DNA from: Deltaproteobacteria bacterium HGW-Deltaproteobacteria-4
GTDB lineage: Bacteria > Desulfobacterota > Desulfuromonadia > Desulfuromonadales > UBA2197
Assembly (NCBI GenBank): GCA_002841765.1
Contig: PHAV01000006.1
Coordinates: 77,975 to 141,974, forward strand
Direction: 5' to 3'
Length of the DNA: 64,000 nt
Both the position numbers and the translations under genes were made by a program. Below, piece by piece: positions 4,608-36,629 of the stretch (within the stretch, counting starts at the first letter, position 1; every line of letters starts with the position of its first letter). Below the pieces are notes generated by a model. It did not search any database and was not told where the DNA came from. It saw only the letters and a program-made list of their open reading frames with translations.

Positions 4608-5624
4608 CTACCGCTCGGCAAACCTTTGGCAGGCCTCAACCACGCAAATAATGTCCTCGGCACGAAGATCGAGGTGGGTGACGAAGCGCAGAGCGTCGTA
4701 ACCGCCCACCAGAATTCCCTGCTCCCGCAAATATCCCTTCAGCGCCTCTTCCCGGTTGTTCTCCACCGTCACAAAGACCATATTGCTCTGCACTGTCGCC
4801 AAGTCGATGTGCAAGCCGGGGAGAGGAGCCAACCCCTCGGCGAGGATGCGGGCGAGGGCATGATCGTGGGCGAGGCGGGGAAGGTTATGCTCTAACGCAT
4901 AAAGACCGGCGGCAGCGAGAATGCCGGCCTGGCGCATGCCGCCGCCGACCATCTTGCGCCAGTGGCGCGCTTCACGGATCAAGTCGCGGCCGCCGCAAAG
5001 GAGGGCGCCGACCGGAGCGCCGAGCCCTTTGGAGAGGCAGATCGAAGCGGAATCGACGGTGGCGACCAGCTCGGCCGGGTCGATGCCCAAGGCCACAGCG
5101 GCATTGCCAAGACGGGCGCCGTCGAGGTGGAGAGCGAGACCCTGCTGTCGCGTCAAAGTCTGCATCTGCTGGTGATAGCGCAGCGACAGGACTTTGCCGG
5201 CATGGGTATTCTCCAGACAAAGGAGGCGGGTGCGGGCGTAGTGATCGTTTATCGGCTTGATGGCGCGGAGGATCCGTTCGGCACTAATCGTCCCGTCCGC
5301 CTCCATGGCAAGAGGTTGCGGCGAAATACCGCCAAGGACGGCGCCACCGCCGCCTTCGCAGCGGTAACAATGTGCCTGATCCCCGGCGAGATATTCGTCG
5401 CCACGCCGGCAGTGTGCCAATAGGGCCAAAAGATTCCCCTGCGTGCCGCTGCTGACGAAGAGGGCGCTTTCGCAGCCAAAGCGTTCGCAGGAAAAGGCTT
5501 CGAGGCGGTTGACGGTTGGATCTTCGCCGTAAACATCATCCCCGACCTCAGCGGCGATCATGGCGGCGCGCATTTCCGGCGAGGGACGGGTGACGGTGTC
5601 GCTGCGCAGGTCGATGTTTAGCAT
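4608..5624 (-). CDS. ltaE: Low-specificity L-threonine aldolase
   Basis: N-terminal DLRSDTVTRP...DDVYGEDPTVN signature of the threonine aldolase family; 338 aa. Confidence 0.85.
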   Translation of the reverse strand: MLNIDLRSDTVTRPSPEMRAAMIAAEVGDDVYGEDPTVNRLEAFSCERFGCESALFVSSGTQGNLLALLAHCRRGDEYLAGDQAHCYRCEGGGGAVLGGISPQPLAMEADGTISAERILRAIKPINDHYARTRLLCLENTHAGKVLSLRYHQQMQTLTRQQGLALHLDGARLGNAAVALGIDPAELVATVDSASICLSKGLGAPVGALLCGGRDLIREARHWRKMVGGGMRQAGILAAAGLYALEHNLPRLAHDHALARILAEGLAPLPGLHIDLATVQSNMVFVTVENNREEALKGYLREQGILVGGYDALRFVTHLDLRAEDIICVVEACQRFAER

Positions 5625-5656
5625 TTAAGTAACTCCCAAAATAACCTGAAAAAATA

Positions 5657-5763
5657 GTCGGACACGGATTAACACGGATGAAACGGATAAAAGACAGATA
5701 AATCAGGTTGAATCCCTTTTAAATCCGTCAAATCAGATTTTATCCGTGTGCTGAATGCTTTTG
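5657..5763. repeat. MITE-like ACGGAT-array repeat, copy 1 (shortened centre; one right-hand unit missing)
   Basis: GACACGGATTAACACGGATGAAACGGATAAAAGACAGATAAATCA ... AAATCCGTCAAATCAGATTTTATCCGTGTGCTGAATGC aligns with the copies at 10339 and 37729. Confidence 0.8.
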
Positions 5764-5877
5764 CTGAAAATGATTATTCCTGCCGCAATCGCTTTGCCTC
5801 AAGAGAAAAAAACAGTTATGCTCGGGCGCTCAGGTGAAGATTTTGACTTGAACGGATAAGAAAGGGGAAGAGACCGT

Positions 5878-6978
5878 ATGGCCCGGAAAATTTTTGTCGC
5901 TGCCACCGGAAAAGATTGTGGAAAGACGACCACCAGCCTTTCACTTCTGCACCTCGCCAGTAAAAAATACGGCAAGGGCCGAGTCGGCTTCATGAAGCCC
6001 TTCGGGCCGAAACCCGCCGAGTACCGCGGGGTGATCGTCGATAAGGACGCCGCCCTCACCGCCGAGATCTTCGGTCTGGAGCAGGACCCCACCCTCCTTT
6101 CTCCGGTCGTTGTCGATCGCGCCACCACCCGTGCTTTTCTCGACGGAGAATTCACCGCCGCGTTCCTGCATGAGAAGATCCGCAGTGCCCTGGACGAACT
6201 CGAGCATCAATACGACTTCATTGTTATCGAGGGATCGGGACATGGTGGTGTCGGCTCGATCTTCGATCTCAGCAATGCCGAGGTGGCCAGGATCACCGAT
6301 GCTCCGGTGATGATCGTCACCGGCGGCGGCATCGGCAATGTCGTTGATGCCACCGCTCTCAACATCGCTCTTTTCCGCCAGGCAGGTGTCGAGGTCAAAC
6401 TGGTATTGACCAACAAGGTCGATCCGGCCAAACGGGAGCAGAGCCTGCACTACCTCACCCTCGCCTTTGCCCGCATCGGGGTGCCGGTGCGTATCGGCTT
6501 CGATTATGCACCGCTCCTTGCCAATCCGACCCTGAACCGGGTGGCAAAAGTCCTCGGGGAGACCTTGCGCGCCACCCCGCAGGAAGCGCAGCGGATTATC
6601 CTCCACCAGCAGCTCGGGGCCGCTTCGTCGCAACGGGTCATTGATCTTCTCGAAGATTCAACCCTGCTGATGGTCAACTCTTCTCGTGATGAACTCCTGG
6701 TAACGACTTCGTCCCTTTATCATCTCCCCGAATATAAAAGGAAAATTGCCGGACTCCTCATCGCCGGTCTCAACCCGATTTCGAAAATTACTCAGCAGAT
6801 CATCGATGATTCGGGGGTTCCTTATCTGCGGACGATGATCACCAATTCCGAGACCTTTACCCTCCTGTCCAACGACGTCTCGAAGACGACCGCCGATGAT
6901 AAAGAAAAGATTGAACTGATCTACAGTATGGCCGAGCGTCAGCTCGATTTCGACGCCATCGAAGCACTGGTGGTGTAG
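5878..6978 (+). CDS. BioD-like P-loop + DRTGG-domain protein (Pta N-terminal-domain-like)
   Basis: N-terminus IFVAATGKDCGKTTTSLSL (P-loop). Overall layout resembles the non-catalytic N-terminal half of long phosphotransacetylases. No PTA catalytic domain present. Confidence 0.6.
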   Translation: MARKIFVAATGKDCGKTTTSLSLLHLASKKYGKGRVGFMKPFGPKPAEYRGVIVDKDAALTAEIFGLEQDPTLLSPVVVDRATTRAFLDGEFTAAFLHEKIRSALDELEHQYDFIVIEGSGHGGVGSIFDLSNAEVARITDAPVMIVTGGGIGNVVDATALNIALFRQAGVEVKLVLTNKVDPAKREQSLHYLTLAFARIGVPVRIGFDYAPLLANPTLNRVAKVLGETLRATPQEAQRIILHQQLGAASSQRVIDLLEDSTLLMVNSSRDELLVTTSSLYHLPEYKRKIAGLLIAGLNPISKITQQIIDDSGVPYLRTMITNSETFTLLSNDVSKTTADDKEKIELIYSMAERQLDFDAIEALVV

Positions 6979-7830: not shown

Positions 7831-7954
7831 AAAAATCTCCTCAAATGGATAGACTGGGTTAGCGTAGCGTAACCCGAAGTTTTTTGGCAAGTGTAGCATA
7901 TTTTTCTTTGACTTTTATCCTGCTGACAATTACAACTGCCGCACAATCGATGAC

Positions 7955-8125
7955 CAAGCGGTCTGGTGCCGTACCCTTGCCGGTACGGATAATAGGGAAG
8001 CGGGTGCAAATCCCGCGCTGTCCCGCAACTGTCAGGGTGGACTGATCTCGCATAATCCCACTGGGGAAACCTGGGAAGGGGCGAGTGAGGGTTGATCCCC
8101 AAGCCAGGAAACCTGCCAAGCCGAC
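7955..8125 (+). promoter_or_regulatory. Cobalamin (B12) riboswitch
   Basis: GGTGCC ... AATAGGGAAGCGGGTGCAAATCCCGCGCTGTCCCGCAACTGT ... CCCACTGGGGAAACCTGGGAAGG ... AGCCAGGAAACCTGCC matches the conserved cobalamin-riboswitch core and B12-box blocks. Confidence 0.85.
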
Positions 8126-8190
8126 GCTGTTTTGGAACCTCCGTGGAAAGAGGGGCCGGAAGCGGAGGTCTATGCGCACCCTCGATTTCG

Positions 8191-10489: not shown

Positions 10490-11530
10490 CTACGTGGCAA
10501 TAAATTTCAACGCCTTCTTGTGCGCGCCGTGCAGGGATAATCCGCGCAAAACCTCCGCGTCAACCCACTCCGCCTTCCCTTCAGCGACCCGCCCCCACTC
10601 TTCCACCTGACCACTGAAAAGCCGCAGATCGACCTTGAAATGGCTGTAGGCATGAGCGACCCGCCCGGTTTCGCGGATGTCACCCACGCCGTAAGTGGCA
10701 GCGAGAACGGCGGCGATGGTCGTTGGATCGTCTCTGACGGCGACGACGCAGGTCGGGAATTCCCAGAGGCCGCCGAGCATCCCGCTCAAGGGACGGCGTT
10801 CGACCCGCCAGCGATTGTCGCGTTCCAGCAGCAGGGCGACCTGCAGCACCGTCGGCACCGCCTTGGTCTTCCGTCTCTCCGGCAACGCGTCTTGCCGTCC
10901 CTGCGCGAAGGCATGACAATGCGCAGCGAGGGGACAGAGGGAACAGGTCGGTTTGGTCGGGGTGCAGCAGGTGGCGCCGAGGTCCATGATCGCCTGAGCG
11001 TAGTCACCGGCGCGCTCAGGCGGAGTCACCGCCTCGGCCGATTGCCAGAGGATCTTCTCCGCCGCTGAGCTGCGCGGGTCGCCATCAAGGGCGAGGAGGC
11101 GCACCAGCACCCGGCGGACATTGCCGTCGAGGATGACGCCGCGCTCGCCAAAGGCGATGGCGCGGATCGCCCCGGCGGTGGAGCGGCCGACGCCGGGAAG
11201 ATCGGTCAGCTCTTCGAGGGACGAGGGGAAAGAACCACCATAGTCGTTCATCACCCGCTGCGCCGCCGCATGCAGGTTGCGGGCGCGGGAGTAGTAACCG
11301 AGGCCGGCCCAGGCGTCGATCACCGCCTCGATCGGCGCGCTGGCGAGGGTGGCGACAGCGGGGAAACGGGCGAGGAAGCGCTGGTAATAGGGGATGACCG
11401 CCGTCACCGTCGTCTGCTGGAGCATGATCTCGGAGAGCCAGATGCAATAGGGATCAGAGGTGTGGCGCCACGGCAGGTCACGGCCGACCTGGCCGTACCA
11501 GGCGAGGAGGAGCGGGGCGATGGAGATCAA
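10490..11530 (-). CDS. mutY: A/G-specific adenine DNA glycosylase
   Basis: [23 protein letters not shown] and [11 protein letters not shown] blocks, Fe-S loop [20 protein letters not shown] start overlaps the hisC stop by 4 nt. Confidence 0.9.
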
Positions 11531-12579
11531 CCAATCTCCCCCAGCGCCTTCAACGTCGTCTCCATCTCCGCATCCGTGCCGATGGTAATCCGCATCCCGT
11601 GTGCCAGGAGCGGATCGGAGAAGTAGCGCACGAGAATCTTGCGGGCGAAGAGGGCATCGTAAACCCGCTTGCCATTTCCATCCGGCGGCGAGGCAAAGAC
11701 GAAGTTGGTGCGCGACTCGACGATGGTGTAGCCGATTTCCTTGAGACCGGCGATGAAGCGTTCGCGGGTGGCGCGGATCTTGGCGACGGTGGCGGCGAGG
11801 TGCGCCTGATCAGCGAGGGCGGCGCTGCCGGCGACGAGGGCGAGGCGGTCGAGGTGGTAGTGGTCGCGGATCTTGTCGAGGGCGGCGACTACCTCGGGGC
11901 GGGCGACGGCGAGGCCGAGGCGCATCCCGGCGAGGGAGTAGCTCTTGGAGAAGGTGCGGGTGACGACGACGTTTTCGTACTTCTTGACCAGCGCCATCGC
12001 CGTGAAGTCGGCGAAATCGACGTAGGCTTCATCGACGATCAGCATGCCTGCGCAGCGCTGCGCGATCTCCTCGATGTAGGCGAGGGGGAAGGAAAAACCG
12101 AGGGGGGCGTTCGGTGAGGTGAGGAAGAAAATCTTTCCCTCGAAACGGGCCGGGAAGTCCTTGATGCGGAAGTCGTCGGTGAGGCCGAAGGTCGTGATTC
12201 TCGCCCCCTGGATCTCGGCGAGGGTGGCGTAATAGGAGTAGGAAGGATGGATGTAGGCGACCTCCTCCTCTTCGCCGGCAAAGGCGCGGATCAGGTTGTT
12301 GAGGAGCTCGTCGGAACCGTTGGCGGTGATCACCCAACTCGGGTCAAACCCGTAAAGCTCCGCCGCCACCTGACGCATCTGTTTGCTGCTGGGGTCGGGG
12401 TATTTGCGCAGATTCTCGCCGTCAGCGCCGATCTCGGCGAGGAGCGCTTCCCGAACCTTCACCGAAGGCGGGTAAGGGTTTTCGTTGGTGTTGAGCTTGA
12501 TCCACGGCTCATGATCAGGGGGCTGGAAGCCGGGGACGTAGCCGGCCATGTCACGAATGGCTTTGCGTAAGGGTTGCAT
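11527..12579 (-). CDS. hisC: Histidinol-phosphate aminotransferase
   Basis: [12 protein letters not shown] motif and [17 protein letters not shown]-lysine block; 350 aa. Confidence 0.9.
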
Positions 12580-12681: not shown

Positions 12682-13761
12682 TTAGTATTCTTCTAAAATC
12701 TCATACAGCGTATTCCGCTTCGCCGGCGTAAACCCCGCGCCGCGGGCAATTTCGACGATCTCCTCAATCGACAGGCGGAAGTCACAACCGGCGGCGGCGA
12801 CGACGTTTTCTTCTAACATGGTGCCGCCGAGGTCGTTGGCGCCGAAACGGAGCGCCACCTGGGCCATCATCGCGCCCTGCGTCACCCAGCTCGCCTGGAT
12901 GTTGTCGATATTCTGCAGAACAATACGCGACAGGGCGAGGACGCGCAGGTAGGCGACGCCGCTGGCGGTTTCGCCGCCGAGTTCGGTATTCCCCGGCTGG
13001 TAGGTCCAGGGGATAAAGGCTGTGAAGCCGCCGGTTCTGGCCTGCAGTTCACGGATGACGAGAAGGTGCTCGACAATATCTTCCGGCGCTTCGCTGCTAC
13101 CGAACATCATCGTCGCGGTGGTGCGCATGCCGAGGCGATGCGCCTCTTCCATCACCGCCAGCCAGTCGCTGGTGCCGATCTTGTTGGGGCTGATCGCCAG
13201 ACGGACGGAGTCGACGAGGACTTCGGCGCCGCCACCGGGGATGGAAGCGAGGCCGGCGGCCTTGAGGCGCCCCAGACAATCCTCCATGCTGATCCCCGAC
13301 TGTTTGGCGATGTGGATGACCTCGGCCGGGGAAAGGGAGTGGATCTGTACACTCGGGAAGCGGCTGCGGATGAGGCGAAAGAGTTCCTCGAACCATTCGA
13401 TGCGCAGCTCGGGATGGAGTCCTCCCTGCATGAGGAGCTGGGTACCTCCGTGCTCAACCAATCCCTGCACCTTTTCCATGATCGTTTCGTAATCGAGGAG
13501 GTAGCTGTCGGCGTCGTCAAGGTTGCGGTAAAAGGCGCAAAACTTACACTTCGAGGTGCAGACGTTGGTGTAGTTGACATTGCGGTCGATGACGAAGGTC
13601 ACGCGGTGCTGGGGATGTTTTTTCTCGCGGATGGCGTCGGCGAGCTGGCCGAGGGCGAGAAGGTCGGCTTCGCGCAGCAGCCAGAGGGCCTCGTCGCGGT
13701 CGATGGGAGTGCCGGCGGTGATTTTATTTTGGATAATCTCAAATGGTTTCATTGGCGTCAT
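12682..13761 (-). CDS. mqnC: Radical SAM cyclic dehypoxanthinyl-futalosine synthase (MqnC-type)
   Basis: DRNVNYTNVCTSKCKFCAFYR cluster motif, QGGLHPEL and IHSLSPAEV blocks. I assigned MqnC versus MqnE from remembered family signatures. Confidence 0.7.
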   Translation of the reverse strand: MTPMKPFEIIQNKITAGTPIDRDEALWLLREADLLALGQLADAIREKKHPQHRVTFVIDRNVNYTNVCTSKCKFCAFYRNLDDADSYLLDYETIMEKVQGLVEHGGTQLLMQGGLHPELRIEWFEELFRLIRSRFPSVQIHSLSPAEVIHIAKQSGISMEDCLGRLKAAGLASIPGGGAEVLVDSVRLAISPNKIGTSDWLAVMEEAHRLGMRTTATMMFGSSEAPEDIVEHLLVIRELQARTGGFTAFIPWTYQPGNTELGGETASGVAYLRVLALSRIVLQNIDNIQASWVTQGAMMAQVALRFGANDLGGTMLEENVVAAAGCDFRLSIEEIVEIARGAGFTPAKRNTLYEILEEY

Positions 13762-13770
13762 GTTGTGGAT

Positions 13771-13838
13771 GGGCGACCCACCGGGTCGCCCCTACGGAAA
13801 ATTGGTTTGGCGTGTAGGGGCGACCCGGTGGGTCGCCC
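13771..13838. repeat. Two inverted REP units (GGGCGACCCACCGGGTCGCCCCTAC / GTAGGGGCGACCCGGTGGGTCGCCC)
   Basis: Units at 13771-13795 and 13814-13838, between mqnE and mqnC. Confidence 0.85.
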
Positions 13839-13847
13839 GCTTGGGCA

Positions 13848-14927
13848 TCAATAAGCCCGCAGCTCGTTATACAAGGTATCCCGCTCCACCGGGATTTTCC
13901 CGGCCTCGCGGATCAATCCGCAGAGCTGCTCTTTGGAGAGGGCCTGCGGCGAAGCGGCGCCGGCGTCGTGGCCGATCTTCTCCTCAATCACCGTGCCGTC
14001 GAGATCGTTGACCCCGAAGGTGAGGCTGACCTGGGCGATCTTGAGGCCGAGCATGACCCAGTAGGCCTTGATGTGTGCAAAGTTGTCGAGATAGAGGCGG
14101 CTGATCGCCAACGTCTTGAGGGCATCGATCCCCCCTGGTCCTTTGGCGCCGGCAATCTTGGTGTTGTCGGGCTGGAAGGCGAGGGGGATGAAGGCCTGAA
14201 AACCGTGGGTCTGATCCTGTAAGGCCCGGAGCTTGTGGAGATGATCGACGCGGTCGGTCGCGGTTTCGATGTGGCCGAAGAGCATCGTTGCGTTGCTCTT
14301 TAATCCGGTGCGATGCGCCAAGGCGGTGACTTCCAGCCAGCGTTCGCCGGAGATCTTCTCCGGGCAGATCTTTTCCCGCACTCGCGCCCCGAGGATCTCG
14401 GCGCCACCGCCGGGCATCGAGCCGAGGCCGGCGAGTTTGAGTTCTTCGATGACCGATTCGACACTCTGGCCGGTGAGGCGGGCAAAGTAGTCGATCTCGA
14501 CCGCGGTGAAGGCCTTGATATGCAGATCCGGTGAGTCGGCGCGAATAGCGGCGAGCATCTCCAGATAGAAGTCAAAGGGGAGGTCGGGGTGGAGGCCGCC
14601 GACCATGTGCAGTTCGGTGGCGCCGGCGGCCTGGGCTTCGGCGGCCTTGCGGAGGATCTCATCCAGCATCATGGTATAGCTGCCGTTCTCCCCCTCTTCC
14701 TTGCTGAAGGCGCAGAAGGTGCAGCGGTTGACGCAGATATTGGTGTAGTTGATGTGACGGTTGATATTGAAGTAGACCTTGTCACCGTGCTTACGGTGAT
14801 TGGCCAAGGCGGCGAGTTCGCCGATGGCGAGGAGGTCGTCGCTAGCAAAGAGGGCAAGGGCATCGCTGTCGGAAAGACGGACACCGGCTTCGATCTTGCT
14901 GCGGATTAAAGGAAAGAGATTGGTCAT
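13848..14927 (-). CDS. mqnE: Radical SAM aminofutalosine synthase (MqnE-type)
   Basis: NRHINYTNICVNRCTFCAF cluster motif, VGGLHPDL and HIKAFTAVEI blocks. Start moved to MTNLFPL (ATG 14927); the track extension would overlap ubiX. Confidence 0.7.
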   Translation of the reverse strand: MTNLFPLIRSKIEAGVRLSDSDALALFASDDLLAIGELAALANHRKHGDKVYFNINRHINYTNICVNRCTFCAFSKEEGENGSYTMMLDEILRKAAEAQAAGATELHMVGGLHPDLPFDFYLEMLAAIRADSPDLHIKAFTAVEIDYFARLTGQSVESVIEELKLAGLGSMPGGGAEILGARVREKICPEKISGERWLEVTALAHRTGLKSNATMLFGHIETATDRVDHLHKLRALQDQTHGFQAFIPLAFQPDNTKIAGAKGPGGIDALKTLAISRLYLDNFAHIKAYWVMLGLKIAQVSLTFGVNDLDGTVIEEKIGHDAGAASPQALSKEQLCGLIREAGKIPVERDTLYNELRAY

Positions 14928-14934
14928 GGTCGTT

Positions 14935-15552
14935 TCAGGGTTCCTCCCCCCAAGGGATGAAGAGGGCGTGCTTGATGCGCAGGCTGTCGAGAATCTTGCC
15001 GATGACAAAGTCGACGAGATCGGCCACCGTCTGCGGTTGACGGTAGAAGGCGGGCATCGCCGGGATGATCTGCGCGCCGCATTCGGCAACGGTTAAAAGG
15101 TTGCGGAGGTGGATGGAGCTCAAGGGGGTTTCACGCGGGACAATGAGGAGTTCGCGTCGCTCCTTGAGGACGACATCGGCAACCCTTTCGATGAGATTGC
15201 TGCCGGCGCCACTCGCGACCCGTCCCAGCGTCCCCATCGAGCAGGGGACGATCACCAGCGCGTCCGGGGCCGAGGTGCCGCTCGCCACCGGGGCGAAGAG
15301 GTCATTGTTGGCGTAGTGGCGCAGCTGGTAGCTGGCAAAGTGGCTGCGGATCAGCTCGCGGCTGACCTCGATATCCGTCGGCCAGTCAAGGCCGGTCTCG
15401 TAGTGCAGCACTTGGCGTCCCGCGTCGGTGAGAAGGAGGGTGACGCGGCAGTCGGCCTTTAACAGTTCCTCGACCAGGCGCAGGCCGTAGATCGAGCCGG
15501 AAGCTCCGCAGATAGCGACGACGATGTTTTTCATAGGGTGTTGACCAATCAT
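14935..15552 (-). CDS. ubiX: UbiX-family flavin prenyltransferase
   Basis: IVVAICGASGSIYGLRL N-terminus and VIVPCSMGTLG block. ATGA overlap with the upstream prenyltransferase; an alternative start at MKNIVV is possible. Confidence 0.85.
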   Translation of the reverse strand: MIGQHPMKNIVVAICGASGSIYGLRLVEELLKADCRVTLLLTDAGRQVLHYETGLDWPTDIEVSRELIRSHFASYQLRHYANNDLFAPVASGTSAPDALVIVPCSMGTLGRVASGAGSNLIERVADVVLKERRELLIVPRETPLSSIHLRNLLTVAECGAQIIPAMPAFYRQPQTVADLVDFVIGKILDSLRIKHALFIPWGEEP

Positions 15553-16412
15553 TTAATCAATACATCCGCCAGGGTGAAGCAGAAAATCGTCACGCTGATG
15601 TAGCCGTTCATATTGAAGAAGGCGGCGTCGAGCTTGGAAAGATCGCCGGGTTTGACGAGGTGGTGCTCCCAGGCGATCATCAGGCTGATGACGCCGATGC
15701 CGGCATAGTAGATCATCCCGAGGGGGAGTCCCTGCGGGATGAGCAGCAGGAGTCCGACCATCAGCCCGTGCAGCACCTTGCCGAGGAGGATTGCCCCCTT
15801 CTCGCCGAGGCGGACCGGGATCGAATGCAGCCCCTGCTTGCGGTCGAAGTCGAGATCCTGCAGGGCGTAGAAGATATCGAAACCGGCGACCCAGAATAAG
15901 ACCGCCAGCGCCAGTGCGAAAATCGGCCACTCCACCGTGCTGCGCAGGGCGATCCATGCACCCAAAGGGGCACCGGCGAGACAGATGCCGAGGACGATGT
16001 GGGCCAGGGAGGTGAAGCGCTTGCAGTAAGCGTAAAGGATGAAGAAAGCGAGGACCAGCGGCGACAGATAGAAGCACAGGGGATTGAGCTGCCAGGCCGC
16101 TACCAACAGGAGGAGGGTCGAGCCGGCGACAAAAATCCATGCTTCCTGTCGGGAGATGATCCCGGCGGGGATCTGCCGACCGGCGGTACGCGGATTTTCG
16201 GCATCGATGCGGGCGTCGATGATGCGGTTCAGCCCCATGGCGGCGTTGCGCGCTCCGACCATGGCGAGGCAGATCCAGCCGATCTGGGCAGCGGTCGGTG
16301 GCTGGCCGTTGGCCAGAGATGCAAGGGTCGCACCCATCAGGGCGAAGGGGAAAGCGAAGATGGTATGGGAGAACTTGATCATCTCCAGCAAATGACGAAT
16401 TTTGCTAAACAT
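15549..16412 (-). CDS. UbiA-family aromatic polyprenyltransferase (MqnP-like by context)
   Basis: Polytopic membrane protein with an N..GLNRIIDARID Asp-rich motif. Lies in an operon with ubiX, mqnE and mqnC. Confidence 0.8.
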   Translation of the reverse strand: MFSKIRHLLEMIKFSHTIFAFPFALMGATLASLANGQPPTAAQIGWICLAMVGARNAAMGLNRIIDARIDAENPRTAGRQIPAGIISRQEAWIFVAGSTLLLLVAAWQLNPLCFYLSPLVLAFFILYAYCKRFTSLAHIVLGICLAGAPLGAWIALRSTVEWPIFALALAVLFWVAGFDIFYALQDLDFDRKQGLHSIPVRLGEKGAILLGKVLHGLMVGLLLLIPQGLPLGMIYYAGIGVISLMIAWEHHLVKPGDLSKLDAAFFNMNGYISVTIFCFTLADVLIK

Positions 16413-16712: not shown

Positions 16713-19274
16713 CTATTTTTTCTCCGTCGCAAAGAAGTCCCGGATTGCGGCGGGGATCTCTCCCTGTGCCAGCACTTGCGTCTGCACCGGCAGTGAGCGC
16801 ATGAAGATGCGGCCGTAGCCTTTGCGTACCAGCCGGCTGTCGAGAATCAGCACCACCCCCCGATCTTCCCGGTGGCGAATCAGCCGCCCGAATCCCTGTT
16901 TAAATCTGATCACCGCCTGCGGCACCGTGTAGTTCATGAAAGGGTCCTTCCCCGCCGCGGCAATCGCCTCGGCTCTTGCTTCGAGGACCGGTTCGGTCGG
17001 CACCTTGAAGGGGAGGCGGGTGATGATCACCTGTTCGAGGGCACGCCCCGGCACATCAACCCCTTCCCAGAAAGAGTCGGTGGCAAAGAGGACGCTGGTC
17101 GGATCGTGGATAAAGGCGCGCAGCAGCCGGTGACGGGTGTCCTCCCCCTGGCGCAGGCAGCGGTAGCCGCGCGCCTCTAAGGTCGGGGCGAGTTCGCCGT
17201 GGATGCGCCGCAATAAGGTGTAGGAGGTGAAGAGGACCAGGGTGCGGCCGTCAGCGGCGACGATCGCCCGCTCGCAGAGATCGCGCAGCTGGTCGGCGTA
17301 AAGGGTGTTCCCCGGCTCAGGGAGGTCGGCGGGGACGGCGACCAGGGTCTGGCGGGCGTAGTCAAAGGGGGAATCGAGTTCAAGCTCAGCGCAGCGGCGC
17401 GGTTCGACGAGGGCTAGGCCGGTACGCTGAGCGAAGTAGGAAAAGGAGGTGGCGACGGTGAGGGTGGCGCTGGTCATCACCACCGTCTTGAAACGATCAA
17501 AGAGGGCGGCTTTGAGTCCGGCGGCGACATCGAGGGGGGCAGTACAGAGGCGGGTGACGATCCCCTTGCCGCGGCCGATGCGTCCCATGCCGATCTCGAA
17601 CCAGATGCAGCTCCCCTCCTGATCGGCGATAAAAGCATAAAGGTCGGAGGTGACGCCGGTGATACGCGCTTCGATGCCGAGAAGATCGGTAAGGACCGAG
17701 GAAATCTTCGGTGCCACCTCGTCGGGAATCTCCTTACAGGCCTTGAGGAGTTCGCGTAACTCCTTGACCAGCTGACCGCTCTGTTGCGCCAGTTGTTGCA
17801 CCGCATCTCTCGTCTCACTCCAGGCGAGCGAGTCGCTGAACGAGGGGATAACGCGCTGGCGGATCTCCTCCCGTTCTTCGATCTTCTTCCCCAGTGCCGC
17901 GGCGAGAAGTTCGCCGATCCGCTCCAGTTCGCTGGTCGCTTTCTCCGCCAACCCCTGGCGACTGACCAGCAACGCTTCGCAGCGCGCGTAGAGGTCGCGG
18001 TATAGAACGTCGCTGCTGTCGGGGAGTTCGCGGGCGATGGTGTCGAGAAAGCGGGGGATCAGCCCCTTTTCGGCTTTACGGGGATGGCGCAGGCGGCCCA
18101 GGACGCGGGCAAAGGCAAAGCGGGTGACCTGGGTGGAGAAGTAGCGGGTCGCCACATCTTCGAGGTGATGCGCTTCGTCGAGGATAACGCGGGCAAAGGG
18201 GGGGAGGACGGCAACCGCACCGTAGTTGTCAGTCTCCTGGCGCAGAGCGAGATCGGCCAAAAGGAGGGCGTGATTAACGACGAGGAGGTCGGCTTGCGCG
18301 GCCTGGCGCCGGGCTTTGTGAAAGAAACAGCGCGAATAGTGGGGGCAGCTGACGCGGCCGCACTGGTCAGCTTCACAGCAGATTTCTTCCCAAACCTCAT
18401 CCGGCGGCAGAAAGGTGAGTTCATCCTTGCCGCCGTCTTTGGTCGCTTTTGCCCACTCCAGCAAGGCGCCGAGATGGGCGACTTCTTCGCTGTCGAAGAG
18501 CCCCGGCTCGGTTTTGGCGGTCTCGGCGCGGCGCAGGCAGAGGTAGTTGTTGCGCCCCTTGACGAGGACGGCACGGAAGTCGAGGCCGCTGGCGCGCTGG
18601 AGGAAGGGGAGATCCTTACGGATCAGCTGCTCCTGCAGGTTGATGGTGTTGGTCGAGACCACGACCCGCTCTTCGTTCTGTTTCGCCCAGAGGAGAGCGG
18701 GGACGAGGTAGGCGAGACTCTTGCCGGTGCCGGTACCAGCTTCGATCACCGCCAGTTTGCCGTGGTTGAAGGCTTCGGCGACATGAAAGGCCATGCGCAG
18801 CTGTTCGGGGCGCTCTTCAAAGTCGGGGAGGGCATTCGCTACCGCACCGCCGGGGCCGAGAATCCCGGCAATTGCCGCCATCTCCAGGGCCACTTCGTTG
18901 CGGGGGGCAAAAGGTTCGACTACGCGGTAGATGCGGCTGACGGGATTGTCGATGATAAAGAAGCCGACGCCGAGGATGCCGAGCTGGCCGGCAATATTGA
19001 GATCAGCTTTGGAGGGGTGCAGCCGGCCGGAGGGATGATTATGAATGACGACGTCGCCATAACGGCAGCCCGAGAGGATTGCCGGCACCGCTTCTTTTGA
19101 GCCGCGTGCCAACACTTCGACAGTATTGACGATCAGTTCCGCCGAGGTGCGGCCGAGAAAAAAGACCTCATTGCCGCCGGCTTCACGGATCGCTGTGGCG
19201 AGGGAAGCCGCGACGGCGGGGGTTAGGGAGGCGGTCAGGGGCGGAGTCGTTGCTGTGGTGTCGGGCATCGTCAA
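16713..19274 (-). CDS. RadC/JAB-domain - DinG/XPD-family Fe-S DNA helicase fusion protein
   Basis: N-terminus ...GNEVFFLG...VVIHNHPSGRLHPSKADL (JAMM/RadC motif). Then Walker A EAGTGTGKS, DEAH box ILDEAHHLED and a Cys cluster CCEADQCGRVSCPHYSRC typical of the DinG/XPD Fe-S domain. 853 aa. Confidence 0.8.
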   Translation of the reverse strand: MTMPDTTATTPPLTASLTPAVAASLATAIREAGGNEVFFLGRTSAELIVNTVEVLARGSKEAVPAILSGCRYGDVVIHNHPSGRLHPSKADLNIAGQLGILGVGFFIIDNPVSRIYRVVEPFAPRNEVALEMAAIAGILGPGGAVANALPDFEERPEQLRMAFHVAEAFNHGKLAVIEAGTGTGKSLAYLVPALLWAKQNEERVVVSTNTINLQEQLIRKDLPFLQRASGLDFRAVLVKGRNNYLCLRRAETAKTEPGLFDSEEVAHLGALLEWAKATKDGGKDELTFLPPDEVWEEICCEADQCGRVSCPHYSRCFFHKARRQAAQADLLVVNHALLLADLALRQETDNYGAVAVLPPFARVILDEAHHLEDVATRYFSTQVTRFAFARVLGRLRHPRKAEKGLIPRFLDTIARELPDSSDVLYRDLYARCEALLVSRQGLAEKATSELERIGELLAAALGKKIEEREEIRQRVIPSFSDSLAWSETRDAVQQLAQQSGQLVKELRELLKACKEIPDEVAPKISSVLTDLLGIEARITGVTSDLYAFIADQEGSCIWFEIGMGRIGRGKGIVTRLCTAPLDVAAGLKAALFDRFKTVVMTSATLTVATSFSYFAQRTGLALVEPRRCAELELDSPFDYARQTLVAVPADLPEPGNTLYADQLRDLCERAIVAADGRTLVLFTSYTLLRRIHGELAPTLEARGYRCLRQGEDTRHRLLRAFIHDPTSVLFATDSFWEGVDVPGRALEQVIITRLPFKVPTEPVLEARAEAIAAAGKDPFMNYTVPQAVIRFKQGFGRLIRHREDRGVVLILDSRLVRKGYGRIFMRSLPVQTQVLAQGEIPAAIRDFFATEKK

Positions 19275-19418
19275 CCTGGGGGGAAATGGTCTTTTTTTGC
19301 GGGAGAAATCGGGAATAAACGCCGGGACTATAGCACTCTGTTCGGCAAGTCACAAGGCGCGTGGTTGTCCGCTGCCCGAGGCCAGGAACCGACTTTCTCC
19401 TCATGACGAAAAAGATGG

Positions 19419-21386: not shown

Positions 21387-22175
21387 ATGAAACTCCTCCT
21401 TTCGACGGGTAGTCTTTATACTCTGCCGATGAGCCAGGCCTGTGAAATTGCCCGCGATACCGGTTTTGACGGGGTAGAGGTCATTGTCGGCATGGAGTTT
21501 CAGCACGGCAACCCCGTCACCAAGATCCGCGAACTGCAGAAGATTATCCCGATCTATTCGCTGCATGCCCCCTTTTTCGATCTCGACGGTTGGGGGGACA
21601 AGCCGGAACAGTTGCGACTTACCGTCCGCCTCGCCATCGAGACCGGCATCCCGTTGGTTAACTTTCACCCCCCTTCCTGGATGGCGATGGAGTTTGGTTT
21701 CTGGCGCTGGTTCAATTCGATCAAGGATTATCAGCAGGAACTCGGGCAGGGGCAAGTGATATTGACGGTCGAGAATATGCCCTCCACCGGGGCCTTCAAG
21801 GTGAATCCCTATCTTCTCGCCCGGACCGAGCGGTTGATCGATTTCATGCGGCAGCACAACCTTTATCAGACCTTCGATACTACCCATATGGGCTCGGGGA
21901 AGACCAATTTTCTCAGCGATTTCCATCAATGTTACGACAGCGGCCGCATGCGGAATATTCACTTCTCTGACTATGGCAACGATCGCGAACATCTCCTTCC
22001 CGGTCGCGGCGTTCTACCCCTGACCCGTTTCTTGAATCATCTGCGCGAGACCGCCTACAACGAAACCGTCACCCTCGAACTCGCCCCTTCCGAATTTCCC
22101 AAGGATGAAGAAGGGATTCGCCGCGGCATGGCCGAGGTCTTTGCTTATCTGCAGAAAGAGACGGGACGGCGTTAA
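21387..22175 (+). CDS. Sugar-phosphate isomerase/epimerase (xylose-isomerase-like TIM barrel) family protein
   Basis: MKLLLSTGSLY...GFDGVEV... pattern of the AP-endonuclease-2/xylose-isomerase-like fold. Start moved to MKLLLS. Confidence 0.6.
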   Translation: MKLLLSTGSLYTLPMSQACEIARDTGFDGVEVIVGMEFQHGNPVTKIRELQKIIPIYSLHAPFFDLDGWGDKPEQLRLTVRLAIETGIPLVNFHPPSWMAMEFGFWRWFNSIKDYQQELGQGQVILTVENMPSTGAFKVNPYLLARTERLIDFMRQHNLYQTFDTTHMGSGKTNFLSDFHQCYDSGRMRNIHFSDYGNDREHLLPGRGVLPLTRFLNHLRETAYNETVTLELAPSEFPKDEEGIRRGMAEVFAYLQKETGRR

Positions 22176-23413
22176 ATTTTCTGTCTTTCCCCTTCCCGCC
22201 GCATCCTGCGCAACCACTCCACTCTCTTTTGTAAAATCAAAGATCCCTTCTCCACCGGCGTCAGTCGTTCGAGTTGCTCAGCGTCAATGTCGAGTTGTGC
22301 GCTCGACAGCCGGGCCGCCGCCAAAGCAAAGTGCCAATCCGGCATCCCCGGCCCTTCCGGCCAGTCGGCGGCGGTCAGTTGCGGCAGGATTTCGCTGATT
22401 CCCCCCTTGATCGCCCCTTCGGCGATGCGGATTCGGGTACTGTCACGGGTCTCCTGCCAGCGGTTCGCCGGCCCGTGCAGGCGGCTCGACCAGGCCAATG
22501 CGGTGCGCCAGGTCGCTGGGAGGGCGAGGCGGTTGCAGAAAGCCGGTGCCATGGTGAAGCCGGCATCATCGTGGCCGTGGTGTTTGGGGTAAAGGGCCGG
22601 GTCGGTGGCAAGCTTGCCAAGATCATGGAAAAAGGCACAGAAGCGTGCCCGCGGCTCTGCGCTTTGTGCCACCATATTGGCGAGGACTTCGCAGTTGTGG
22701 GTAAAGAGGTCCCCTTCCGGATGATGCTCCAGGGGGCCGGCGGGGATCTGCGGCATGCGGAAGAGCTCCGGCAGCAGATCGCGGCCGACATTGAATTGCA
22801 GCATCAGGACAAAGAAGCTGCCAGGATCCGGCTGCGCGAAGGCCTTGCTCATCTCGGCGGAGAAGCGTTCGATCGGCAGCAGCTGCAACCGCTCATGCCA
22901 ATCTGCGCTCTCGATGAGTTCCGTCGTCTGCGGGGCCAGACTCCAGCCATCGGCGGCAAAGCGGAAAGCCCGGAAAAGGCGGGTCGGATCAGCGCTGAAA
23001 GTGCCGGCGGAACAGGGACGCAACTGTCGGAGATTGAGATCATTCACCCCCCCCAGCGGGTCATATAGCTTCCCCTCCAGATCGAGAGCGAGGGCGTTGA
23101 CAGTAAAGTCGCGGCGGCGCAGGTCGTCCGCCAGTTCGGCAACACCGCCGATGCAGGTCGCCTCGACCTTGCCGAGAGCCGCCGAGTGATAAAGGTGGAT
23201 CGGTGGCGCATCTTTCGGCTTTACCTCCCGGAAACGGCGGCTCGTCAACTCCTGCTCCGGCAGGGCAACAACGAGATCGAGATCAACGCTCTCCCTGCCG
23301 AGGAGAAGATCGCGTACCGCGCCGCCGACAAGGAAGATCCGGTTATAAAGTTCCGGCGGGAAGAGGGGACGTAGCTGCTCCAAGGCAGCGCAGTTGTCGA
23401 GATCTGTGTGCAT
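22172..23413 (-). CDS. cca: CCA-adding enzyme / poly(A) polymerase-family nucleotidyltransferase with HD domain
   Basis: LVGGAVRDLLLGRESVDLDLVV, RRRDFTVNALA, HHPEGDLFTHN and FFHDLGK blocks. The start overlaps the upstream activator stop (TGATG). Confidence 0.7.
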   Translation of the reverse strand: MHTDLDNCAALEQLRPLFPPELYNRIFLVGGAVRDLLLGRESVDLDLVVALPEQELTSRRFREVKPKDAPPIHLYHSAALGKVEATCIGGVAELADDLRRRDFTVNALALDLEGKLYDPLGGVNDLNLRQLRPCSAGTFSADPTRLFRAFRFAADGWSLAPQTTELIESADWHERLQLLPIERFSAEMSKAFAQPDPGSFFVLMLQFNVGRDLLPELFRMPQIPAGPLEHHPEGDLFTHNCEVLANMVAQSAEPRARFCAFFHDLGKLATDPALYPKHHGHDDAGFTMAPAFCNRLALPATWRTALAWSSRLHGPANRWQETRDSTRIRIAEGAIKGGISEILPQLTAADWPEGPGMPDWHFALAAARLSSAQLDIDAEQLERLTPVEKGSLILQKRVEWLRRMRREGERQKI

Positions 23414-26223
23414 CAGGCGATCCGCACGGTCTTGTATAGGAAATTCTTGTAACGGAAGAAGGTCTTTTTCTCCTCGGCGGCTTCGCTGCGCGGGTCGCAG
23501 GCCCGCAACAGTTCGGCGCTCTTGGGCATGGTGTCGGCGCCAGCGGCGCGGGCGAGTTCGATGATCTCAAGGACGATATCTCGGGTGATGCGATTCGCCG
23601 AATAGGGTTCGTAGATGCCGCTCCAGAAGTCGCTCTGCCCTTCGATGATGCACTGGTAGATCTCGCGGGCGACGTCGCTGGTCAGGCTCTTGCGGTTGTT
23701 TTGCGGTTGCGGCGGATCGAGGGCAGTGAGGATGGCGCGGATATCGTCTTCACTGACGCTGCGTCCTTTGCGGAAAAAGAGGGCACGCAACAGGATGCTG
23801 CGCAGTTCGCGGATGTTGCCGGTGTAGTGGTGCGCCGCCAGCAGGGCCTGGGCGCCGCGGTTCAGGGTCGGACCGTCTTCGTCGCGCTCTTCCGGTTTTT
23901 TGTAGACGCGATAGAGTTTACCGAGGAAGTGGACAGCGAGATCGGGGATGTCTTCGCGCCGGTCATTCAAGGACGGCACCTGGATGGTCAGTTCGTTGAG
24001 GCGGTGGTAAAGGTCTTCGCGAAAATGGCCGGACTGGATCAGCGCCTTGAGGTCGCGATTGGTGGCGGCGATGAGGAGGACGCGGGCATAACGGGTGGCA
24101 TTCTCGCCGAGGCGGACAAAACCGCCATTATCAAGGAAGCGCAGCAGCTGCACCTGGGTCTTGGGGTCGGCATCGCCGATTTCATCGAGGAAGACCACCC
24201 CGCCATGCGCTTCTTCAAGAATCCCCTTGCGGTCGGTATGCGCCCCGGTGTAGGCGCCGCGTTTGTGGCCAAAGAGTTCCGAATAGGTGATCTCGCCGCT
24301 GTAGGCAGCGATGTTGGTCTTCTTCACCGGCAGTTCGCCGCGCGGGTTGATCCGCTCCTGATAGATGGCGTTGAGGCGCGAAAAGATATTGTTGAAGAGA
24401 AACTCCTTGCCGCTGCCGGTGTCGCCGGTGATCAGGATCGAGGGGAGGCCGAGGGTCGCTTCCTGCAATCCACTTTGTTGCCAGGTGGCGATGCGGTTGA
24501 AGAGGGGGGGGGTAATGGTCTGGATGAAGTTGACGACCTCGTTCGCCTTGGCCGATTTGCCGATGATATTGCCGAGGATATAGGACGAAATCTTCGGGTC
24601 TTTGTAGCCGACGTCCTTTTGCAGGCGGTTGACTTCGGTGGTCAGCTGCTCAATGCGCTGCAGATCGGAGAGGTGACGCGAGATCATCCGTTCGATGATC
24701 ATCAGGATGCGGCGGTGCTCGTCAGTAAAGTAGTGGGGGCGCAGACTGTCGAGGCAAATAACAGCAATGACTTCATCGTCGCAGATCACCGGCACGGCGA
24801 TCTCGCTTCGGATCGCCTCTGTAATCTCGCGATAAAAGCCGTCGCTGCGTTTCTCTTCCTGCGTATCGTTGATCAGGTGGGGCCGGCCGGTGAAAGCGAC
24901 GTAGCCGGTCATGCTCCGCTCTGCCGGCGGGAGATTGAGCCCGCCGACCCGATTCGGGGGGATATTGCGCTTCAGCCAAGACTTGCTCTTGGCGCCTAGC
25001 AGGGTGCCGTCCACTTCTTCGACGACCAGCCAACGCTCCCCACCTTCTTCTCGCACCAGGGCGATACTGCCGGTATCGGCGTTGATCAGTTCTGTCGCTT
25101 TGGAGAGAACGCGGGTAAGGAAGGGGGCAAGGCTATCGTATTTCTCCTTGAGGAGATCATTGATTTCAGCGAGGACCTTGATCTCGATATGTTCATCGCC
25201 GATCTCTTGTATAACCCGTTGTGCCATCTCGGCATGGGCTTCAAGGAGGCCCTTTTCAAAGTCGGTGAGGAGGTGGGCTTCGCGCATGTAGTAGTTGACC
25301 AGGCAGATGACCTTGCGGGTTCGCGGCTCATAACGCGGCACCACATAAAGGGACTTGAGACCGAGTTCTTCAACGAGATAGCGCTTTTGCAGTGACTCCG
25401 AGGGGAGATCGTCGAAGTACAGGGGGTGAAGGAGGGTGTCGTCGGTAATGATCCCCTGCCGGTTGATATAGCGGGATAGGAGAGATTTTCCCGGTCCGAG
25501 GCTGATCAGGCGCTCATCCTCGTAAAGGAGGGCCGCTTCCCGCTCTTTCGAGTAAGAGGCGACGATCTGCAAGCTCTCCTGTTTCTCCCCGGTGGAAGGG
25601 ATGAGAACTGAAGCCAGTGTCAATTTGTCGATCAGTCGGACCGCCGACTTCACCATGATCAGCGCCGCTTCTTTCTTCTTGGCCTGATCGACGCGTCGTG
25701 CCAGGACAAGCTGCTGATGGTATTTACGCGCCTGATCGATGATCGGGGCAACATCGGTCAAAAAGTTCTCAAGGAGATTCAGGGACGGCTCGGCTGGAAG
25801 CTGCCCGGGATGGCTGCTGTCGAGACAGAGGACACCGATACCACGTTCCAGATGGATCAAGGGGAGGAGCAGAGTGGCGCGAATCTCAAATCGTCGGGCA
25901 AATTCCGGTCCGCCATCCGGGAGCATTGCGAAATCGTCGATTCGGTTGCCGGTGCGGGTCAGGTAGGCGTGGGCCTCAAGGTCGTCGGCGTTGGTCAAGG
26001 GAAAGGTCGTCGCGCGCAGAGCCGCTGCGTGGGGGCCAGTCGCTGCCGCACAGGCAAGGACACCGTCGGTCAGATCTTCAAGATAAAGACGGCAGCGCCC
26101 CTGACGGTTGATCAGGGCAATTGCTTCCAGAAGTGCATGGAGAATGTCATCAAGATTCTCCTTGGAGTAGGAATTAATTTTGAGGCGCAACTGATCGAGT
26201 CGGATAGAGGTGTTGATCGGCAT
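23413..26223 (-). CDS. Sigma54-dependent transcriptional activator with three N-terminal GAF-like domains
   Basis: AAA+ core: ILITGDTGSGKE (Walker A), GAYTGA (variant of GAFTGA), VFLDEIGD (Walker B). About 560 aa of upstream sensory region with three GAF-like repeats, two ending ...CLDS. Confidence 0.8.
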   Translation of the reverse strand: MPINTSIRLDQLRLKINSYSKENLDDILHALLEAIALINRQGRCRLYLEDLTDGVLACAAATGPHAAALRATTFPLTNADDLEAHAYLTRTGNRIDDFAMLPDGGPEFARRFEIRATLLLPLIHLERGIGVLCLDSSHPGQLPAEPSLNLLENFLTDVAPIIDQARKYHQQLVLARRVDQAKKKEAALIMVKSAVRLIDKLTLASVLIPSTGEKQESLQIVASYSKEREAALLYEDERLISLGPGKSLLSRYINRQGIITDDTLLHPLYFDDLPSESLQKRYLVEELGLKSLYVVPRYEPRTRKVICLVNYYMREAHLLTDFEKGLLEAHAEMAQRVIQEIGDEHIEIKVLAEINDLLKEKYDSLAPFLTRVLSKATELINADTGSIALVREEGGERWLVVEEVDGTLLGAKSKSWLKRNIPPNRVGGLNLPPAERSMTGYVAFTGRPHLINDTQEEKRSDGFYREITEAIRSEIAVPVICDDEVIAVICLDSLRPHYFTDEHRRILMIIERMISRHLSDLQRIEQLTTEVNRLQKDVGYKDPKISSYILGNIIGKSAKANEVVNFIQTITPPLFNRIATWQQSGLQEATLGLPSILITGDTGSGKEFLFNNIFSRLNAIYQERINPRGELPVKKTNIAAYSGEITYSELFGHKRGAYTGAHTDRKGILEEAHGGVVFLDEIGDADPKTQVQLLRFLDNGGFVRLGENATRYARVLLIAATNRDLKALIQSGHFREDLYHRLNELTIQVPSLNDRREDIPDLAVHFLGKLYRVYKKPEERDEDGPTLNRGAQALLAAHHYTGNIRELRSILLRALFFRKGRSVSEDDIRAILTALDPPQPQNNRKSLTSDVAREIYQCIIEGQSDFWSGIYEPYSANRITRDIVLEIIELARAAGADTMPKSAELLRACDPRSEAAEEKKTFFRYKNFLYKTVRIA

Positions 26224-26384: not shown

Positions 26385-26475
26385 GGAGAGATGTCCGAGT
26401 GGTTTAAGGAGCACGCCTGGAAAGTGTGTGTACGTTAATAGCGTACCGAGGGTTCGAATCCCTCTCTCTCCTCCA
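26385..26475 (+). tRNA. tRNA-Ser (anticodon GGA), long variable arm, CCA encoded
   Basis: Acceptor stem GGAGAGA/TCTCTCC, anticodon stem-loop CACGC-CTGGAAA-GTGTG, long extra arm GTACG..CGTAC, T-arm GAGGGTTCGAATCCCTC. Confidence 0.9.
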
Positions 26476-36458: not shown

Positions 36459-36509
36459 AGATATTCGGTTGACTTTTTCCGCGGCACCCTGCTAGCTTAA
36501 CATCACAAT

Positions 36510-36610
36510 TTAGCCCTAGGGGAGTGACTGACGTCACTGAGAGTTTCGCCGCCAGCGGGACGACCCTTTGAACCTGATCCGGCTCATACCGGCGTAGGGA
36601 AGCGGCGCAT
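36510..36610 (+). promoter_or_regulatory. TPP (thiamine pyrophosphate) riboswitch
   Basis: AGGGGAGTG...CTGAGAG...ACCCTTTGAACCTGATCCGGCTCATACCGGCGTAGGGAAG matches the THI-box core. Confidence 0.85.
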
Positions 36611-36629
36611 CCTCCCGAACGAATTATGA

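Follow-up and report, generated by a model that had tools for sequence, protein, structure and literature searches.

An ortholog of the RadC-like DinG helicases in a Desulfuromonadales genome, with an invariant JAMM site in its predicted N-terminal JAB domain

Introduction

The subject of this work is a gene for a DinG/XPD-type helicase with a predicted N-terminal RadC-type JAB domain, located on the minus strand of a 64,000-nucleotide stretch of DNA (hereafter the window; contig PHAV01000006.1 of Deltaproteobacteria bacterium HGW-Deltaproteobacteria-4, positions 77,975 to 141,974). Fusions of this kind, RadC-JAB::DinG, were reported by Iyer et al. in 2011 and a nuclease role was inferred for them, on the argument that related helicases have a 3'-5' exonuclease at the same place, from which a possible nuclease activity of the JAB domain was concluded (PMC3239186; again in PMC5512222). 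A 2025 review has defined the subgroup "RadC-like DinG", modelled the Desulfuromonas soudanensis protein with AlphaFold3, described the architecture as YoaA-like with HolC absent from the organisms carrying a RadC-like DinG, and stated that the subgroup was without any research so far (PMC11981726); our search of the literature since 2018 on RadC biochemistry found nothing relevant. RadC-type JAB proteins are found in the majority of bacterial lineages and in numerous mobile elements without a demonstrated activity, and the covalent link to a DinG helicase, in print since 2011, is among the few strong hints that RadC acts on DNA. The initial annotation of the locus, made from the sequence, is in agreement with this literature when it describes RadC as lacking a settled biochemical function and other DinG proteins as carrying exonuclease add-ons (PMC11981726, PMC3239186). 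It also presented the fusion as a useful functional clue; the fusion has indeed been used for such an inference, but the clue is not new, since it was published in 2011 (PMC3239186) and again in 2025 (PMC11981726), and the window locus is one more ortholog rather than a new idea.

Other described systems resemble the window protein in part. YoaA, the E. coli DinG paralog working with HolC (chi), has the same four-Cys iron-sulfur (Fe-S) core of the DinG type, but is without an N-terminal JAB domain. ExoDinG of Bacillus and Staphylococcus (PDB 8ZEF/9II8) carries an N-terminal DnaQ-type 3'-5' exonuclease, i.e. an accessory hydrolase domain placed before the DinG core as in the window protein; the N-domain of ExoDinG is RNase H-like, whereas a JAB/deaminase-like fold is predicted here. 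Canonical RadC (PF04002 plus an N-terminal HhH region; 2QLC) has in common with the window protein the HNHPSGxxxPSxxD motif and an upstream Glu, but the N-domain studied here is devoid of the HhH region and has invariant features of its own, such as A54-R55-G56. In eukaryotic DNA-protein crosslink repair, FANCJ and SPRTN likewise bring together a 5'->3' Fe-S helicase of the XPD/DinG family and a zinc metalloprotease. The likeness to this last system is a functional analogy only, as FANCJ and SPRTN are two separate proteins and SPRTN belongs to the zincin-type proteases and is no JAB protein.

Assignment to the RadC-like DinG subgroup

The listing of open reading frames (ORFs) of the window gives an ORF of 853 residues, 16713..19274, opening with the TTG at 19274; these are the coordinates of the initial annotation, which named no strand, and the ORF lies on the minus strand. 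The start is probably the ATG at 19268, two codons inside this TTG, because the closest relative, a metagenomic protein 94% identical to the window protein (P0001), is also 851 residues long. All residue numbers are counted from this ATG, from which the coding sequence (16713..19268, minus strand; stop codon at 16713-16715) encodes 851 residues. The joining of a JAB domain to a DinG/XPD-type Fe-S helicase within one ORF, as proposed in the initial annotation for the 853-residue frame, is in agreement with the Pfam and NCBIfam matches, the conservation and the predicted fold described below.

With the RadC-like DinG subgroup, the protein shares the N-terminal RadC-like JAB domain (with its E, H, H and D), the YoaA-like four-Cys DinG core and the order Desulfuromonadales. 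It is 62-69% identical over the full length to other Desulfuromonas proteins, and the D. soudanensis exemplar (A0A0M4DKS9) is 67% identical to its N-domain. The gene, whose neighbours are specific to its lineage, is an ortholog with nothing substantive different, an ordinary member of a catalogued subgroup whose architecture is already known, and it is nearly certain that its product is a chromosomal RadC-like DinG, i.e. a DinG/YoaA-type superfamily 2 (SF2) helicase with a four-Cys Fe-S domain and an N-terminal JAB domain.

The N-terminal JAB domain and its JAMM site

Direct translation of the gene gives an intact JAMM signature composed of E34, H76-N-H78, S86 and D89, which bears out the complete JAMM/RadC signature annotated near the N-terminus. 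Glu34 (19167..19169, minus strand), within the sequence GGNEVFFLG, is the JAMM general-base Glu, and the JAMM motif HNHPSGRLHPSKAD (residues 76-89, 19002..19043, minus strand) contains the zinc-ligand positions H76, H78 and D89, residues S86 and D89 belonging to its S..D part. Conservation was analyzed in 48 orthologs of 62-94% identity and in a diverse set, comprising 69 full-length proteins of species-representative genomes of several phyla. In the orthologs, E34, H76, N77, H78, P79, P85, S86 and D89 are all invariant, and the JAMM residues are thus conserved as the annotation supposed. In the diverse set, E34, S86, D89, R55 and G56 are found in 69/69 proteins; H76 and H78 were within the search pattern used for this set and their conservation there is uninformative, whereas E34, S86 and D89 were outside the pattern. 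The latter three residues are also invariant among 28 N-domain sequences. Identity among the orthologs is 62% in the JAB domain, a value similar to that of the Fe-S domain, and 48% in the Arch domain.

This conservation bears on a reading in which the JAB domain is non-catalytic, i.e. a zinc-stabilised binding or regulatory module that would, for example, recruit the helicase to a partner, substitute for the HolC (chi) contact of YoaA or autoinhibit the motor. MPN domains that are inactive, Rpn8 and CSN6 for example, commonly serve as scaffolds. The helicase core resembles that of YoaA while HolC is reported to be absent where a RadC-like DinG is present (PMC11981726), and fusobacterial versions without zinc ligands may, according to Iyer et al., only bind DNA (PMC3239186). 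The general-base Glu and the Ser and Asp of the S..D part are however unneeded for the mere holding of zinc, and yet E34, S86 and D89 are invariant in both the 69 diverse proteins and the 28 N-domain sequences, which is the pattern expected from selection on catalysis. A purely non-catalytic role is for these reasons considered quite improbable.

At the sequence level, the Pfam RadC family (PF04002) matches residues 75-98 only, with 22.0 bits for a gathering score of 22.1, and a PF04002 match is precomputed for most of the orthologs. The NCBIfam models of canonical RadC (PRK00024 / TIGR00608) give 23.6 bits (cutoff 180) and 18 bits (cutoff 133.85), with no full-length match. A weak match to RadC 2QLC (E=0.018) was found by phmmer among the PDB sequences, and hhalign against 12 canonical RadC proteins gave a probability of 96% with 29 columns aligned. 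Because an alignment of 29 columns leaves the whole fold unproven by sequence, the structure of residues 1-145 alone was predicted with AlphaFold2 from an alignment of the 28 diverse N-domain sequences. The resulting model has a predicted local distance difference test score (pLDDT) of 88.4 and displays, in order, a helix, two strands, a helix, a strand, a helix and two strands. When it was compared with the PDB by Foldseek, RadC 2QLC came first (E=3.5e-5), followed by the archaeal JAB protein AF2198, Rpn11, CSN5 and BRCC36. The model and these matches support the prediction that residues 15-120 (18909..19226, minus strand) form a RadC-clade JAB domain with a complete JAMM zinc-hydrolase site, in line with the fold first proposed for this region.

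The helicase core

The C-terminal part of the protein contains, all on the minus strand, helicase motif I (Walker A, AGTGTGKS, residues 177-184, 18717..18740), the Fe-S cluster insertion (residues 244-314, 18327..18539), motif II (DEAH, residues 364-367, 18168..18179), a predicted Arch domain made of long helices and a beta-hairpin (approximately residues 401-580, 17529..18068) and a second motor domain corresponding to the Helicase_C_2 region (approximately residues 669-827, 16788..17264). By translation, the order of the Cys-rich insertion is C244...C297/C298/C303/C308/C314. The conserved residues of the insertion are C244, C303, C308 and C314 (plus C298); the first four are, like Walker A and the DEAH box, invariant in the 48 orthologs. 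In the 69 diverse proteins, C244, C308 and C314 are present in 69/69 and C303 in 62/69, and motif II reads DE(A/G)H. The Pfam matches of the helicase part are Helicase_C_2 (PF13307, E=1.5e-45), DEAD (1.9e-10) and a weak DEAD_2.

A full-length AlphaFold2 model was built on the 48 orthologs (pLDDT 80.2; predicted template modelling score, pTM, 0.77). Foldseek of this model vs the PDB gave E. coli DinG 6FWR (E=8e-37), to which the predicted Arch domain also corresponds, then S. aureus DinG 9II8 (E=7e-30), then CasDinG and XPD. These data support a predicted DinG/XPD-type SF2 helicase with a four-Cys Fe-S domain. Among the NCBIfam models, YoaA ranks first with 598 bits, below its equivalog cutoff of 680, followed by the Bacillus-type DinG PRK08074 (505 bits) and the E. 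coli-type DinG PRK11747 (429 bits). The PRK08074 match begins at profile position 249 (249-911 of 931) and covers everything after the exonuclease: the ExoDinG core is alignable over its full length, but the window protein is not itself an ExoDinG.

The matches of the core to defence-related models lead to another reading, in which the protein would belong to a mobile system, anti-phage or CRISPR-associated, and serve as a defence helicase like CasDinG instead of in housekeeping repair. The strong PADLOC typeIV_DinG matches (PDLC01439, 3.5e-133) plus Csf4 models are compatible with such a role, as is the frequency of RadC domains in conjugative elements and prophages (PMC5512222). The PADLOC matches are nevertheless accounted for by the DinG helicase core, which is shared, and the NCBIfam Csf4 model of the type IV CRISPR CasDinG (TIGR03117) gives 120.6 bits, far short of its cutoff of 400. 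In the Desulfuromonadales genomes sampled, orthologs of 62-69% identity are found in varied housekeeping contexts, a pattern that indicates vertical inheritance. Neither cas genes nor other known defence genes were detected among the ten flanking genes scanned, and no CRISPR-like array was found in the 64 kb of the window. The Csf4 score under the cutoff, together with the lack of such neighbours and of an array in the window, led to the rejection of this reading, whose likelihood is judged to be minimal.

Proposed function

By family knowledge of DinG, XPD and FANCJ, the motor would hydrolyse ATP and move 5'->3' on single-stranded DNA. On the architecture, the JAB domain is tethered to motor domain 1 via a linker, variable and about 30 residues long (residues 121-150, 18819..18908, minus strand), which is the least conserved stretch of the protein with 43% identity, and it occupies the position of the DnaQ-type exonuclease of ExoDinG. 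Because E34, H76, H78, S86 and D89 are invariant across phyla, the JAB domain should be a working zinc hydrolase and not a relic, and it would act on something on DNA that the helicase encounters or uncovers. For the identity of the protein and this general mechanism taken together, the choice of JAB chemistry being excluded, we estimate the probability at roughly 0.8.

As to this chemistry, we lean tentatively, and by analogy, to amide (peptide or isopeptide) hydrolysis of protein or peptide adducts on DNA, which would make the fusion a one-polypeptide counterpart of FANCJ and SPRTN; the initial annotation had likewise suggested that such adducts may be removed ahead of the helicase. We do so because every characterised JAMM enzyme is, as far as is known, an amidohydrolase and because the structure searches give only proteases. 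The lean is also due to the presence, in one lineage, of a separate nuclease adjoining the fusion gene, and to the unfolding of DNA-protein crosslinks by FANCJ for SPRTN, as given in the passage of PMC10505908 that cites Yaneva 2023.

The nuclease proposal of Iyer et al. (2011) has to be set beside this lean. According to it, the JAB domain is a nuclease or another nucleic-acid-processing enzyme that has replaced the ExoDinG 3'-5' exonuclease by "non-homologous domain displacement", and the protein is a helicase-nuclease. The JAB domain does hold the N-terminal place of the DnaQ exonuclease in PRK08074-type DinG, and the other accessory domains of DinG-like helicases are all nucleases, as in ExoDinG, EndoDinG and CasDinG-HNH (PMC11981726). 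Furthermore, fusions of RadC JABs to HhH, ArdC-N and DnaG primase modules occur as well, these JABs being described as devoid of the ubiquitin-tail groove (PMC3239186, PMC5512222), and the JAB fold is related to that of deaminases, which act on nucleotides (PMC3239186). The helicase core is however nearer, by hidden Markov model score, to the nuclease-free YoaA than to ExoDinG, and the separate MBL/RMMBL nuclease encoded directly upstream in KSB1/Calditrichaeota suggests, as a weak argument against the proposal, that a nuclease is supplied there by another protein. In addition, phosphodiester cleavage is not known for any JAB or deaminase-fold enzyme. A nuclease activity of the JAB domain appears on balance rather unlikely, but it is a serious rival to the peptidase choice; other roles, non-catalytic ones included, take up the remaining probability.

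Several points weigh against the overall reading, and two of them against a peptidase in particular. The sequence likeness to canonical RadC is confined to about 29 columns around the motif, the PF04002 score is 0.1 bit short of the gathering score, and the Foldseek template modelling scores (TM-scores) of the N-domain are moderate, 0.40-0.60. The two points that concern the peptidase are the lack of a ubiquitin-tail groove argued for RadC-type JABs (Iyer et al., PMC5512222) and the nuclease nature of all the other accessory domains fused to DinG-like helicases (PMC11981726). The genes that flank the fusion gene in the window have no relation to repair and do not accompany it elsewhere. Finally, the sequence upstream of the gene gives no sign of damage induction: GGTTNNCNNNNGNNNACC, the Geobacter-type LexA box, has no match near the gene, and its total in the 64-kb window is below chance.

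It is judged less likely than not that the invariant JAMM site is active on DNA-bound substrates, whether in a single-chain helicase-protease for DNA-protein or DNA-peptide crosslinks or in the first nucleic-acid-processing enzyme of the JAB fold; if this is true, either activity would assign a biochemical function to RadC, a widespread family. The fusion proteins are a convenient handle on the choice between peptidase and nuclease in RadC chemistry. As a possible help in the choice of model organisms and substrates, the present analysis adds a wider range of phyla, the conservation of E34/S86/D89 and of the Arg-Gly pair, the nuclease-helicase gene pair of KSB1/Calditrichaeota and the co-residence of radC, the last two being described below.

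Taxonomic spread and fixed architecture

The N-domain profile was searched against 1.84 billion representative proteins; the clusters found number 272 at E<=1e-30, or 586 if the limit is relaxed to E<=1e-10. Among the best 150 matches listed, the JAB domain is N-terminal without exception, the complete proteins having about 810-920 residues. A genome scan revealed relatives of the N-domain in at least 428 species-representative genomes, among them Desulfuromonadales and relatives of Geobacter, KSB1, Calditrichaeota, Nitrospirota, and bins of Spirochaetia and Deferribacteres. The fusion, whose distribution had been left to be checked by the initial annotation, is therefore spread over several phyla, more widely than in earlier accounts, which is a minor addition to them. 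Locus comparisons were carried out on the best 80 of the loci from these at least 428 genomes, and of the complete ORFs in these 80 loci nearly all have 840-930 residues and helicase motifs. A fusion made by misassembly or by a frameshift is ruled out by the identical single-ORF architecture in hundreds of independent genomes.

No convincing natural fission or stand-alone N-domain was found among the short N-domain matches, which were rejected as stand-alone proteins since they are contig-end fragments. In one metagenomic contig (L001:6001-8550), a single in-frame stop at the otherwise invariant Pro154 codon (...DFEAR*EQQQM...) causes the fusion gene to be called as two genes; most likely this reflects a pseudogene or an error of sequencing, not a natural split. 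In two other loci (L082 and L083), the gene was called in several pieces, probably as a result of frameshift errors of long-read assemblies.

Genomic neighbourhood

Clustering of the flanking ORFs over the 80 loci revealed lineage-specific neighbours only. In nine KSB1/Calditrichaeota-type loci (L041, L046, L047, L065, L068, L072, L075, L077 and L078), a gene for an MBL/RMMBL nuclease is found directly upstream on the same strand and often overlaps the helicase gene; in L065, for example, it occupies 4993-5973 and the helicase gene runs from 5980. The encoded nuclease is similar to TIGR04122, the ligase-associated DNA-damage-response exonuclease (186 bits vs a cutoff of 325). Because the remaining neighbours vary among the KSB1/Calditrichaeota-type loci, the MBL/RMMBL gene and the RadC-like DinG gene look like a two-gene nuclease-helicase cassette.

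Twelve species, in a subset of mostly Desulfuromonadales loci, have a full-length canonical radC (PRK00024, 249 bits) on the same strand as the fusion gene and 0.6-2 kb downstream of it (L010, L014, L015, L018, L020, L021, L024, L028, L030, L031, L033 and L039; for instance at L010:6109-6825), and the fused JAB domain therefore does not replace RadC. Subsets of loci, mostly of Desulfuromonadales, show a divergent HhH-GPD glycosylase gene upstream (nine loci) or an SGNH hydrolase gene downstream (nine loci), the latter often standing between the fusion gene and radC; in the radC-bearing loci the upstream glycosylase gene is often present too. The MBL/RMMBL nuclease, the HhH-GPD glycosylase and the canonical RadC adjacent to the fusion gene in some lineages are hints that point to DNA repair.

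In the window itself, a sigma-70-like promoter is suggested about 55 bp 5' of the ATG by a consensus match only (TTGTGA-17-TATAGT with an upstream TG, 19327..19355, minus strand). The four genes directly downstream (12682-16412, minus strand) encode a UbiA prenyltransferase, a UbiX-like flavoprotein and two radical-SAM proteins of the CofH/MqnC-like (MqnC/E-like) kind, and on the reading of their Pfam matches they point to a menaquinone cluster of the futalosine type. Beyond this run comes an aminotransferase gene (11527-12579, minus strand), whereas genes for a DUF4212 protein and a sodium:solute (SSF) symporter are divergent on the upstream side. None of these neighbours (UbiA, UbiX-like, radical-SAM pair, aminotransferase, DUF4212/SSF), nor a CCA-type nucleotidyltransferase, was found by tblastn to be conserved beside the gene in related loci. 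An operon-level clue from conserved synteny was rejected in the absence of shared neighbours in these loci.

A plus-strand ORF of 338 residues (18084-19100) is nested wholly within the helicase gene and is probably spurious, as is common in G+C-rich DNA; the G+C content of the window is 58.7%. A gene of the CCA-adding/poly(A) polymerase family (22172-23413), whose product has an HD domain, adjoins that of a 936-residue sigma-54 activator with several GAF-type sensor regions before its AAA+ domain (23413-26223, minus strand). Elsewhere in the window, a tRNA-Ser (GGA) at 26385-26475, a cobalamin riboswitch at 7947-8134 (123.5 bits) and a thiamine pyrophosphate (TPP) riboswitch at 36508-36617 (71.1 bits), all on the plus strand, were detected above their Rfam gathering scores.

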